DNA of 17,381 nucleotides. Source: a virus. The notes under the pieces were generated by a model. The model was not told where the DNA came from. It saw nothing but the letters and a program-made list of their open reading frames with translations, and ran no database searches. This document shows, piece by piece, positions 8,576 through 10,923 of the stretch. Position 1 is the stretch's first letter. Each line of letters opens with the position of its first letter. The stretch lies in the UHGV virus genome UHGV-0315696. One strand, written 5' to 3'. The position numbers and the translations under genes were made by a program.

Positions 8576-8959
8576 ATGACACGCAGAACTCAGTTCAAAG
8601 GCAATTCACGTTCTCGTCGTCGTGAGCGTTTAAAGGCAAAGGCATTAGCTAACGGCGTGCTGGCCCGCGAAGAAGCAATAAGTTCAGAAGTATTACACCG
8701 CCCTACTCTAAGCAGAGCGCAGATTCAGGCTAAAGGTACTCACGAAACGCCTGAGCGCATAGAAGACGCTAAGCCAATTAAGTTCATGGCACAGGACGTG
8801 ATCTGGCAACAGAAAGAATACAGACGCAATCTGGAGCGAGCGGCCATTGTGTACGCGAATGAGTTTGGACATAAGCAACCAGAAACTGGTGTATGTCTTC
8901 CAAACGTAGCCATTTACGCGGCAGGCTACCGGAAATCCAAACAACTGACGGCGAGGTGA
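8576..8959 (+). CDS. N: N-like transcription antiterminator (P22 gp24-like; N-terminal arginine-rich motif)
   Basis: 127 aa with AGGAGG SD. ARM-like N-terminus (NSRSRRRERLKAKA). The C-terminus ...LPNVAIYAAGYRKSKQLTAR parallels my recollection of the P22 N C-terminus. First gene of the pL operon after a boxB. Confidence 0.65.
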   Translation: MTRRTQFKGNSRSRRRERLKAKALANGVLAREEAISSEVLHRPTLSRAQIQAKGTHETPERIEDAKPIKFMAQDVIWQQKEYRRNLERAAIVYANEFGHKQPETGVCLPNVAIYAAGYRKSKQLTAR

Positions 8960-9707: not shown

Positions 9708-10067
9708 ATGAACGAAACAGAACTGAAGCACATTATCGCCCTGCTTCTGGAAGATGCCAAACAGGTTTATCGACTTAGCCCAAATTCCGCAACGCTGACA
9801 CGCATCCAGATGGCAGAAAAAGCACTGAAACAGGATAATGAAAACAGCGCATCTGAAGTTGATGCTAATGGTGAAAATGAAGTAATAGAAATAAACAGCA
9901 ATATCAGCGACAGTTGCGTCGCTTACAGCCACCAAATAATTCGTGTAAGCGCAAGAATAATGGAATTGATGGCAAGTGAGCTTGAAAAGAACAACATCAA
10001 GCCCACTGATTGTTGTTTAAGAACCGTAATGAACGTTATTTATTACTCGATGTTCCGAAGTCGCTAA
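9708..10067 (+). CDS. Hypothetical early-left protein (119 aa)
   Basis: ATG at 9708 with GGAG SD (the track starts at 9687). No family recognised. The 3' end overlaps the convergent small ORF. Confidence 0.45.
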   Translation: MNETELKHIIALLLEDAKQVYRLSPNSATLTRIQMAEKALKQDNENSASEVDANGENEVIEINSNISDSCVAYSHQIIRVSARIMELMASELEKNNIKPTDCCLRTVMNVIYYSMFRSR

Positions 10068-10245
10068 CAGCGTCGAGTTTTTCATCAAAAAATGATTCAA
10101 ATACATCGTAAAATACGGCAATAGCACCGCCCTTATCTACCGCGGCAGGAACTGCCTTTTGAGGTATATCTTTCTCCCTGAATTGTGTGTTGTAGGTATC
10201 GACAGCCAGCCGCATCAGAAACATCACTTTTTCTTCTTGTGTCAT
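10036..10245 (-). CDS. Hypothetical small protein (69 aa) antisense to the pL operon
   Basis: Strong SD TAAGGAG 8-9 nt upstream of the ATG at 10245 on the - strand. Protein-like composition (MTQEEKVMFLMRLAVDTYNTQFREKDIPQ...). Confidence 0.45.
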   Translation of the reverse strand: MTQEEKVMFLMRLAVDTYNTQFREKDIPQKAVPAAVDKGGAIAVFYDVFESFFDEKLDAVSDFGTSSNK

Positions 10246-10465
10246 AAATTCACTCTCCTTACGGGGTTTGTAGTTGAGGAGTTCTCCACGGGTGAGGTGG
10301 AGATCGTGCGCCGGACACGGGTGAGTTCCGGCACTCTCAGTTTACTGAACAGACATTCCCCTGAAAGCCAGGGTACAACACGAAAGTGCACGGCGAAGAC
10401 TCTTTCCCATTGAAGGCTTGTCGTTAGATTTCTTCGACCGTGCGCTTCCGGTTGTGAATAACAAC

Positions 10466-10525
10466 ATTGCTGTGTGTAGCCCTTGGCGGACATCGGTTTG
10501 CCGATTGCTGATGTCCGCCCTTTTT
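10466..10525 (+). ncRNA. DicF-like sRNA candidate ending in a strong rho-independent terminator (hairpin 10485..10519, T5 10521..10525)
   Basis: TTGGCGGACATCGGTTTGCCGATTGCTGATGTCCGCCCTTTTT has the same architecture as, and substantial identity with, the DicF 3' portion as I recall it (TTGGCGGTATCAG...CTGCCGCCCTTTTT). Sits in a 440-bp noncoding stretch within the pL operon, as dicF does in Qin. The 5' boundary is a guess. Confidence 0.45.
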
Positions 10526-10701
10526 AAAGTGAATTTTGTGATGCGGTGAATGCGGCTATGCGCACGCGGAACAGTTAAACCGACAGGATGTCACGGAAAG
10601 TCATCGTCCCCTGACCCGGCGTTAGTTGTTAACTGGTTAACGTCACCTGGAGGTACCAGGCACCGCATCAACAAAGTTCATTTGTGAAAATGGAGATAAT
10701 T

Positions 10702-10923
10702 ATGATTGCTCATCACTTCGGAACTGATGAAATACCACGTCAGTGCGTGACGCCTGGCGATTATGTTCTTCATGAAGGTCGGACATATATCGCTTCAGCA
10801 AACAATATTGAAAAGAGAAAACTCTATATTCGTAACTTCACAACAAAAACATGCATTACCGACTGCATGATTAAAGTTTTCATCGGGCGCGATGGCTTAC
10901 CCGTAAAAGCAGCGTCGTTGTGA
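10702..10923 (+). CDS. Hypothetical small protein (73 aa)
   Basis: ATG at 10702 with GGAG SD 6 nt upstream (the track starts further upstream at 10684). Not similar to DicB as recalled. Confidence 0.4.

Follow-up and report, generated by a model that had tools for sequence, protein, structure and literature searches.

A KilS-type small RNA in the dicF position of an Escherichia coli lambdoid prophage

What does the noncoding spacer ahead of the kil gene in the viral genome UHGV-0315696 encode? The stretch of DNA that was analysed, referred to here as the window, is 17,381 nucleotides (nt) long, and the original prediction for positions 10246-10683 was a small RNA (sRNA) gene for a variant of DicF, the sRNA of the Qin prophage. 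An sRNA gene is very probably present in this spacer, and it does lie in the slot that dicF holds in Qin-type prophages. The sRNA was thus rightly spotted, but the family name was wrong: the locus is one of KilS, an sRNA that is already known from the Rac prophage of E. coli K-12 but barely characterised. The best explanation of the spacer is that it is the kil leader of a lambdoid pL operon, and that it probably holds a KilS orthologue at about 10434-10525 on the plus strand.

A KilS-type RNA upstream of kil

The element and its parts are placed as follows.

10434-10525, plus strand: KilS-type sRNA, its 5' end placed by alignment with the start of K-12 KilS and its 3' end, like that in K-12, at the final T of the T-run
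10465-10466, plus strand: putative RNase E site, placed from the K-12 site (1418471), which falls on the corresponding C immediately before AUUGCUG
10466-10479, plus strand: seed AUUGCUGUGUGUAG, equal to RprA nt 60-73 and identical at 14 of 14 positions to K-12 KilS
10485-10519, plus strand: intrinsic terminator and Hfq-module hairpin of 13 base pairs (bp) with its loop at 10498-10506, from folding
10521-10525, plus strand: U5 tract, in a context (CCGCCCTTTTTAAAGTGAATTTTGTGATG) that is the same in K-12 kilS and dicF

There is little doubt that the element belongs to the KilS family. A covariance model (R1) made from 16 KilS-type sequences, with the window type excluded, matches the window at 10440-10525 with 55.7 bits (E 1.5e-12), the same model giving 26.0 and 23.1 bits to the dicF loci and 15.9 bits to RprA. 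The position directly ahead of a kil gene 90% identical to K-12 KilR speaks for the same family. The alignment with K-12 kilS, over the whole RNA, has 69 identical and 22 mismatched positions plus 8 gap columns (about 70% identity), which are spread unevenly, with 24 of 32 positions identical in the 5' part, all 14 in the seed, and 31 identities, 14 mismatches and 8 gap columns in the 3' part. In K-12 the gene is annotated as the ncRNA b4833 (NC_000913, 1418405-1418502) and lies in the equivalent place upstream of kilR in Rac. It was predicted from Hfq RIL-seq and confirmed by northern blotting, one of the probes being directed specifically at the loop of the hairpin (Bar et al. 2021, PMC8175672), with a transcription start at 1418502 and an RNase E site at 1418471 (PMC8175672, the RNase E site in Table S6). 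The stable Hfq-bound transcript of about 98 nt is known from K-12 only (PMC8175672), for the window a discrete transcript is predicted from sequence. Rfam 15 has no KilS family, and the K-12 Rac locus yields no match there at the gathering level.

Read from 5' to 3' the RNA begins with a hairpin, continues as an A-rich single strand UGAAUAACAAC into the seed, and after 5 nt of spacer ends in the 13-bp terminator hairpin with its U5. The stem-loop with T5 on the plus strand, which had been noticed at the outset, is borne out, with a perfect 13-bp stem (10485-10497 with 10507-10519), a loop of 9 nt (UUGCCGAUU), and then a C and TTTTT. The fold of 10440-10530 has a predicted energy of -32.5 kcal/mol (z = -4.07), with none of 200 shuffled sequences as stable, and the stem carries a compensatory change in that the pair C10491-G10513 becomes U-A in copies of the L148 type and U.G in L021. 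The U5 tract is the 3' end of K-12 KilS and also of the 53-nt form of DicF. The noncoding character of the stretch also stood up: the 438 nt of 10246-10683 are without an annotated coding sequence in the 20 best E. coli RefSeq matches, and one-base indels relative to the homologous dicF locus of Tritos disrupt every reading frame of the spacer.

The window type of kilS is the rarer one. Of 5426 complete E. coli genomes 71-85 carry it, O104:H4 among them, and it has never been annotated. The K-12 type is commoner, being found in 1455-1534 of the same 5426 genomes.

The RprA-like seed and the exchange of cassettes

The seed is where the element touches the host. It came to attention via the Rfam RprA alignment, and the 14-mer occurs once in the window, where 0.01 occurrences would be expected by chance. 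The identity with RprA reaches 16 nt in K-12 KilS and 20 nt (ATTGCTGTGTGTAGTCTTTG) in L115 and the L160 group, and in the window nothing upstream of AACAAC can be aligned to the 5' region of RprA (nt 1-59). The suggestion that the seed is divergent from that of DicF is therefore right as far as the difference goes, but the seed is not merely divergent, being identical over 14 nt to that of a host sRNA. A literature search found no published mention of the seed identity of KilS and RprA, and the only paper it turned up on KilS (PMC8175672) is silent on RprA.

Processed RprA consists of the last 47 nt, RprA60-105, beginning AUUGCUGUGUGUAGUC (PMC9262595; PMC3465796), and it therefore begins exactly with the seed sequence. 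RprA60-105 by itself represses csgD, and the pairing of RprA GCUG with CAGC at -87 to -90 of csgD, known as site Ib, has been proven by compensatory mutation, with mutation at GCUG affecting ydaM/dgcM too (PMC3465796). This csgD-pairing GCUG is contained in the seed of the window. As RNase E cuts K-12 KilS just 5' of AUUGCUG, the 5' end of processed KilS would equal that of processed RprA, and the predicted folds of the two processed forms have the same layout.

On csgD the program duplexfold gives -24.2 kcal/mol at -99 to -83 for RprA60-78, -26.5 kcal/mol at -99 to -82 for the K-12 KilS seed, and -29.1 kcal/mol at -113 to -82, with the validated CAGC inside, for the window seed, and in each case none of 500 shuffles is as good. 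The window seed is near-perfectly complementary to csgD site Ib. A second candidate is yncL, which is a named RIL-seq partner of KilS (PMC8175672) and a frequent partner of RprA in RIL-seq and TRIC-seq (bioRxiv 10.1101/2025.09.11.675593), the shared 14-mer pairing with its 5' untranslated region (UTR) at -37 to -17 with -14.0 kcal/mol, which is equalled by 2.2% of shuffles. When the window itself was scanned for sites complementary to the seed, the only one found lies in the kil UTR (10531-10570, -20.3 kcal/mol), has many G.U pairs and does not stand out.

How might such an RNA work? Transcripts coming from pL, or from a weak internal promoter, would stop at the hairpin unless an N-like antiterminator had modified the RNA polymerase, and expression of kilR in K-12 is known to be under transcription-termination control (PMC5793797). 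It is likely that the hairpin, by ending transcripts when there is no N-type antitermination, both gates the toxic kil and creates an Hfq-binding sRNA of which it forms the 3' end. A leader helix of about 18-24 bp (10381-10398 with 10432-10450), together with the RNase E site, would then process the RNA to a form of about 60 nt with the 5' end of processed RprA (RprA60-105), and this form would pair with targets of RprA, namely csgD at site Ib, yncL and possibly dgcM. Expression of the pL operon would thereby be tied to the shut-off of curli and biofilm. That RNase E exposes the seed, and that the seed then regulates targets of RprA, csgD and yncL among them, is put at close to an even chance. 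The wider idea, that in KilS-type RNAs phages carry a copy of the working part of RprA, with which a prophage imposes part of the Rcs/RprA response each time that pL or the kil leader is transcribed, is tentative, as is the idea that comes jointly with it, in which the dicF/kilS position is a modular sRNA slot whose target specificity is exchanged by recombination.

Several points weigh against these ideas. The published support for KilS is thin, with a small number of chimeras and an sRNA score that is low (0.03-0.15; PMC8175672), and chimeric reads that fall in the 16 nt common to KilS and RprA could in principle be mis-assigned between the two. KilS is without the RprA nt 28-59 region, which in RprA contacts rpoS, hdeD, narP and csgD site II (PMC9262595, PMC3465796). 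The target pairings are duplexfold energies that take no account of accessibility, and on yncL the seed segments of 30-35 nt did no better than shuffles, only the 14-mer did. The hairpin is trailed by only 5 U. In K-12 Rac the sequence TGTTAAATT at -15 to -7 of the mapped KilS start forms an extended -10 and is followed by GTGGGAG, in the window both are replaced by the Qin-type CGTTAGATT...TTCGACC, and a consensus promoter scan of the spacer found no sigma-70 site. An independent promoter for the KilS of the window is therefore doubtful and a transcript of its own uncertain.

The case for a modular slot comes from comparison of many loci. Public genomes and viral contigs were scanned for the exact downstream flank, which gave 136 usable loci. 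The seeds in these loci are of the DicF type in 84, the KilS type in 42, a third type or type C (CCATGTTGATT...) in 6 and a fourth type in 3, with 1 other. The gene that follows is KilR in 32 of 35 scorable loci with a KilS seed and DicB in 68 of 71 with a DicF seed, and there are also swaps. There are also chimeras, two with a KilS seed and a DicF-type hairpin (L096 and L115), of which L115 passes the Rfam DicF model at 61.6 bits, and one with a DicF seed and a window-like hairpin (L011). Seeds and hairpins have thus been recombined, and therefore DicF and KilS are, judged by their sequences, allelic relatives, cassettes that can replace one another at a single locus. To that extent the reading as a variant of DicF was partly right.

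Further variation is seen at the slot upstream of CTTTTTAAAGTGAATTTTGTGATG (loci L006-L138), which has at least 4 seed types and at least 6 hairpin types within the same flanks, and in L020, L040 and L116 the hairpin base GGCGG/CCGCC is replaced by GGTGG/CCACC. The type-C seed is found in L061, L068, L088, L106, L111 and L112. An Rfam scan of the type-C cassette of L088 found a weak match to the DicF hairpin (34.1 bits) and no other resemblance to a known sRNA, and therefore seed mimicry is supported for the RprA-type seed alone.

A census of the seed was made by scanning viral contigs for AACATTGCTGTGTGTAG and pooling these with the flank-based loci. The seed or a one-base variant of it is found in 25 distinct cassettes, with at least 8 different hairpins and several flanks, and in all 25 a stable hairpin with a T-run comes 4-8 nt after the seed. 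A seed-based scan is circular where seed conservation is concerned, the flank-based sample and the pairwise comparison with K-12 are not. The pattern indicates that selection acts on the seed. The same RprA-type seed was seen in L166, L167, L160, L171, L142, L161 and L143 with unrelated hairpins (for example GGCCGA...TCGGCC), flanks and neighbours, L166 and L167 being near ParB-like and methylase genes, and L142, L161 and L157 lying upstream of distant KilR-like proteins.

Alternative readings of the spacer

The hairpin may be an operon-internal terminator or attenuator and nothing else, with kil silent until N acts or Rho/NusG is lost, and with a short RNA that is functionless in trans. A hairpin in the 5' UTR of a toxic gene with an N-like gene upstream is what would be expected of an attenuator, the expression of K-12 kilR depends on termination factors (PMC5793797), and the RIL-seq partners of KilS are few (PMC8175672). 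A terminator, however, needs no 14-mer upstream of it, yet the 14-mer is the best conserved part of the element while the hairpins swap, and it matches both the validated pairing nucleotides of RprA and the csgD site. K-12 KilS is also associated with Hfq and visible on northern blots (PMC8175672). The two roles are compatible, gating being already part of the best explanation, and a hairpin that is an attenuator only is considered unlikely.

A true variant of DicF would be a member of the same family with a changed seed, and a set of targets still centred on ftsZ and cell division. The position speaks for it: the element is in the dicF slot, an FtsZ inhibitor is likewise encoded downstream, and alignment to the dicF loci of Tritos and K-12 Qin shows homologous flanks that are about 80-85% identical (about 200 nt upstream, plus everything from CCGCCCTTTTT on) around a core cassette that is different. 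The Rfam covariance search that had been proposed alongside the original prediction gave no DicF when the window was scanned at gathering scores; the matches it did give, to isrK and C4, lie in another part of the window. With permissive settings the region 10100-10800 (701 nt) gave three matches, every one under its cutoff, the first being DicF (RF00039) with 29.5 bits at 10471-10520 against a cutoff of 48, for which the E value of 2.4e-4 in this 701-nt search can be counted in favour of a variant. The others were RprA (RF00034) with 29.7 bits against 70 (E 0.23) and STnc100 (RF02076) with 28.3 bits at 10522-10716 against 47. K-12 dicF reaches 76.7 bits on the DicF model, and K-12 kilS gives the same sub-threshold trio as the window, with 39.1 against 29.5 bits for DicF, 28.1 against 29.7 for RprA and 28.0 against 28.3 for STnc100.

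The resemblance to DicF is confined to the hairpin base (GGCGG...CCGCCCUUUUU) and to the flank that follows the hairpin. The sequence before the hairpin, which had been thought to resemble DicF, matches KilS and RprA instead. In DicF the 5' end pairs with xylR and the 3' loop with ftsZ and pykA (PMC5069750), and both are missing from the window, the xylR-pairing segment UUUCUGGUGACGUUU having other sequence in its position and the loop (..UUUUACUCCGUGACUG..) having UUGCCGAUU in its place. With both target-binding segments replaced the name of variant DicF has to give way to KilS, and the preference of the KilS model for the window over the dicF loci (55.7 against 23-26 bits) points the same way. 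It is true that the chimera of KilS seed and DicF hairpin in L115 clears the DicF cutoff. Duplexes of the full-length sRNAs with the ftsZ/ftsA leaders, by duplexfold, were unrealistically long and none was separated from shuffles, DicF with ftsZ itself being no better (z = -1.2), so that this comparison is uninformative. On the whole a DicF variant with a target set centred on cell division is regarded as improbable.

It has also to be considered that the kil mRNA is itself what the conserved blocks control, in cis, by way of leader structure, processing or translation, the RprA-like block being a shared recognition module for Hfq or RNase E and not a seed. In favour of this the leader helix covaries, the hairpins of the UTR downstream are conserved, the K-12 RNase E site abuts the RprA-like block, and the seed has the weak complementarity to the kil UTR at 10531-10570 given above. 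An RprA identity of 16-20 nt, up to ATTGCTGTGTGTAGTCTTTG in L115/L160, is however beyond a loose binding motif, the same block is found beside unrelated downstream flanks and genes, and the site at 10531-10570 is G.U-rich and does not stand out, so that action in cis alone is slightly more improbable still. That small proteins are encoded, for instance one of 45 amino acids (aa) by the open reading frame (ORF) at 10550-10687 or one of 83 aa by that at 10242-10493 on the minus strand, has next to no probability, the ORFs exist mechanically and some phage records do give hypothetical proteins here, but RefSeq/PGAP annotates none in the best 20 genomes and the frames are broken by one-base indels and a non-homologous middle relative to the Tritos, Qin and Rac loci; a protein-coding spacer was rejected on the frame-breaking indels.

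The leader, the operon and known systems

The KilS-type RNA is set within a longer leader and an operon whose features are the following.

6570-7283, plus strand: cI-like repressor of the pL-type operon
8576-8959, plus strand: N-like antiterminator (phrog_271, 'anti-termination protein N-like', E 3e-39)
10036-10245, minus strand: 69-aa gene bounding the spacer (RefSeq coding sequence WP_047644941.1; phrog_2605, E 7e-45)
10263-10433, plus strand: structured leader, about 85% identical to the ydfC-dicF spacer and common to the Qin and Tritos dicF loci
10381-10398, plus strand: 5' arm of the leader helix, which the minimum-free-energy fold extends to about 10374
10425-10430, plus strand: TAGATT, a hexamer that resembles a -10 and lies in the leader-helix loop, weak, compared with the published transcription start 1418502
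10432-10450, plus strand: 3' arm of the leader helix, from covariation and folding
10526-10701, plus strand: 5' UTR of kil with the hairpins GTTAACTGGTTAAC and CACCTGGAGGTACCAGG, conserved in Qin and Rac loci, weakly STnc100-like
10702-10923, plus strand: kil, a KilR-type FtsZ inhibitor 90% identical to K-12 KilR (phrog_294, E 8e-36; RefSeq 'kil')

The leader helix is well supported. Among 32 distinct homologues, KilS-type and DicF-type together, 91.5% of the cells are paired and 5 pairs have compensatory changes, none of 500 shuffles reaches the observed pairing, and controls in which the arms were slid are 28-48% paired. Folding of the single sequence also finds the helix, lengthened to about 24 bp, and its loop has a conserved TTGTCGTTAAATTT element. 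Since RNase III cuts the dicBF transcript (PMC5069750), the helix may by analogy be a processing site, perhaps for RNase III. Other predicted hairpins of the leader are at about 10283-10303, 10310-10331 and 10359-10373, with a z of -4.0 for the fold of 10263-10530. The region 10283-10331 is made up of two adjacent hairpins, CUCCAC...GUGGAG and GCCGGA...UCCGGC, each containing ACGGGUGAG, this pair is also in the Tritos dicF leader, and the Qin leader has a variant second copy ACGGGUGCG. Downstream, the kilR UTR of K-12 Rac scores 28.0 bits on the STnc100 model and the kil UTR of the window 28.3, both under 47, and it may be that STnc100 is the equivalent leader of related prophages. A literature search on the sieB-kilR or kilR leader found no match.

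The window is an E. coli lambdoid prophage, 100% identical to the prophage of strain G1/2 that adjoins a truncated ynfG and also to phage PhiR5_2. On the plus strand the operon runs from the cI-like repressor through a KilA-N protein, the N-like antiterminator and three genes of unknown function, it is followed by the minus-strand 69-aa gene, the 438-nt spacer and kil, and then by RecE, gam, bet, exo and int. With the repressor, N-like gene, kil, RecE/gam/bet/exo and integrase all on the plus strand, the placement of the spacer in a pL operon was correct. The N-like gene upstream would make read-through of the hairpin conditional. RefSeq has at 8891-8959 merely a 69-nt pseudogene ('regulator, partial'), and the whole ORF of 127 aa at 8576-8959 matches phrog_271; from its sequence the N gene of the window may be intact and under-annotated.

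The 69-aa gene has an AAGGAG Shine-Dalgarno sequence 8 nt ahead of its ATG, and its position is that of sieB in K-12 Rac. A small gene on the opposite strand lies directly 5' of the sRNA leader in many loci, phrog_2605 in the window and sieB in Rac and L003, with other small opposite-strand ORFs immediately before the leader in L142, L161, L166 and L167, which suggests a moron slot beside the sRNA slot. Far from the spacer, at 609-796 on the minus strand, there are gathering-level Rfam matches to C4 antisense RNA (609-693, 74.4 bits) and isrK (719-796, 75.4 bits), just ahead of an ORF6N-domain gene that is cut off by the start of the window. The region looks like a P1/Gifsy-type c4/isrK-antirepressor immunity module of the pR side, and the C4 and isrK pair is likewise present in L007 and L020.

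What is gained is first of all a correct name for an unannotated element that recurs in complete E. coli genomes (71-85 of them, the O104:H4 outbreak lineage among these) and that would otherwise be liable to be filed as 'DicF-like'. KilS, so far without a known role, gains a testable prediction in the mimicry of the RprA seed with csgD site Ib as target, for which the compensatory mutants needed to test the pairing are already in the literature. If the prediction is true, pL activity of the prophage would lead to repression of csgD, perhaps also of dgcM, and so to less curli and biofilm, in addition to regulation of yncL. The parts worth pursuing are the RprA-seed identity and the modular slot.

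The closest known relative is K-12 KilS, which also adjoins kilR from upstream, and shares with the window the identical seed block, the block GTGCGCYTCCGGTTGT, and an identical terminator 3' arm, U5 and downstream flank (GCTGATGTCCGCCCTTTTT and at least 40 nt after it). It differs in its stem, which is bulged and has a longer U-rich loop in K-12, whereas the window has a perfect 13-bp stem with a 9-nt loop. The 5' end and upstream flank of the window are of the Qin (dicF-locus) type and lack the K-12 extended -10/start context, and the window prophage carries an N-like gene that may be intact.

DicF of Qin has the same slot in a pL-type operon, homologous flanks and a division-inhibitor gene downstream, and it has the hairpin base GGCGG...CCGCCCUUUUU in common with the window, so that biogenesis by termination and RNase processing is probably shared. 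In Qin, however, the leader helix and the sRNA stand about 120 nt further apart, with dicB as partner gene against kilR in the window, and the 5' seed and the ftsZ/pykA loop of DicF are replaced in the window.

The likeness to RprA is in the layout of the processed form, which opens with the seed and passes over a short spacer to a terminator with a U-run, as well as in the seed itself, which is 14 nt of RprA 60-73 in the window and 16-20 nt in family members, with predicted pairing to csgD Ib and yncL. Unlike RprA, which comes from the chromosomal rprA locus, the RNA of the window is encoded by a phage, shows no sign of an Rcs-controlled promoter, and has an unrelated terminator hairpin, with an Rfam RprA score of 29.7 against 70 bits.

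Phage-encoded RNAs that plug into core sRNA networks include AgvB, AsxR and StxS. AgvB and AsxR are anti-sRNAs of enterohaemorrhagic E. coli that mimic an mRNA target and so sponge a core sRNA, and like these the RNA of the window would be a prophage-borne RNA of the Hfq type that interferes with or extends a core sRNA regulon. The difference is that anti-sRNAs copy the mRNA target, whereas here, if the reading is true, what the phage copied would be the seed of the host sRNA, and its RNA would be directed at the mRNAs which that sRNA regulates.

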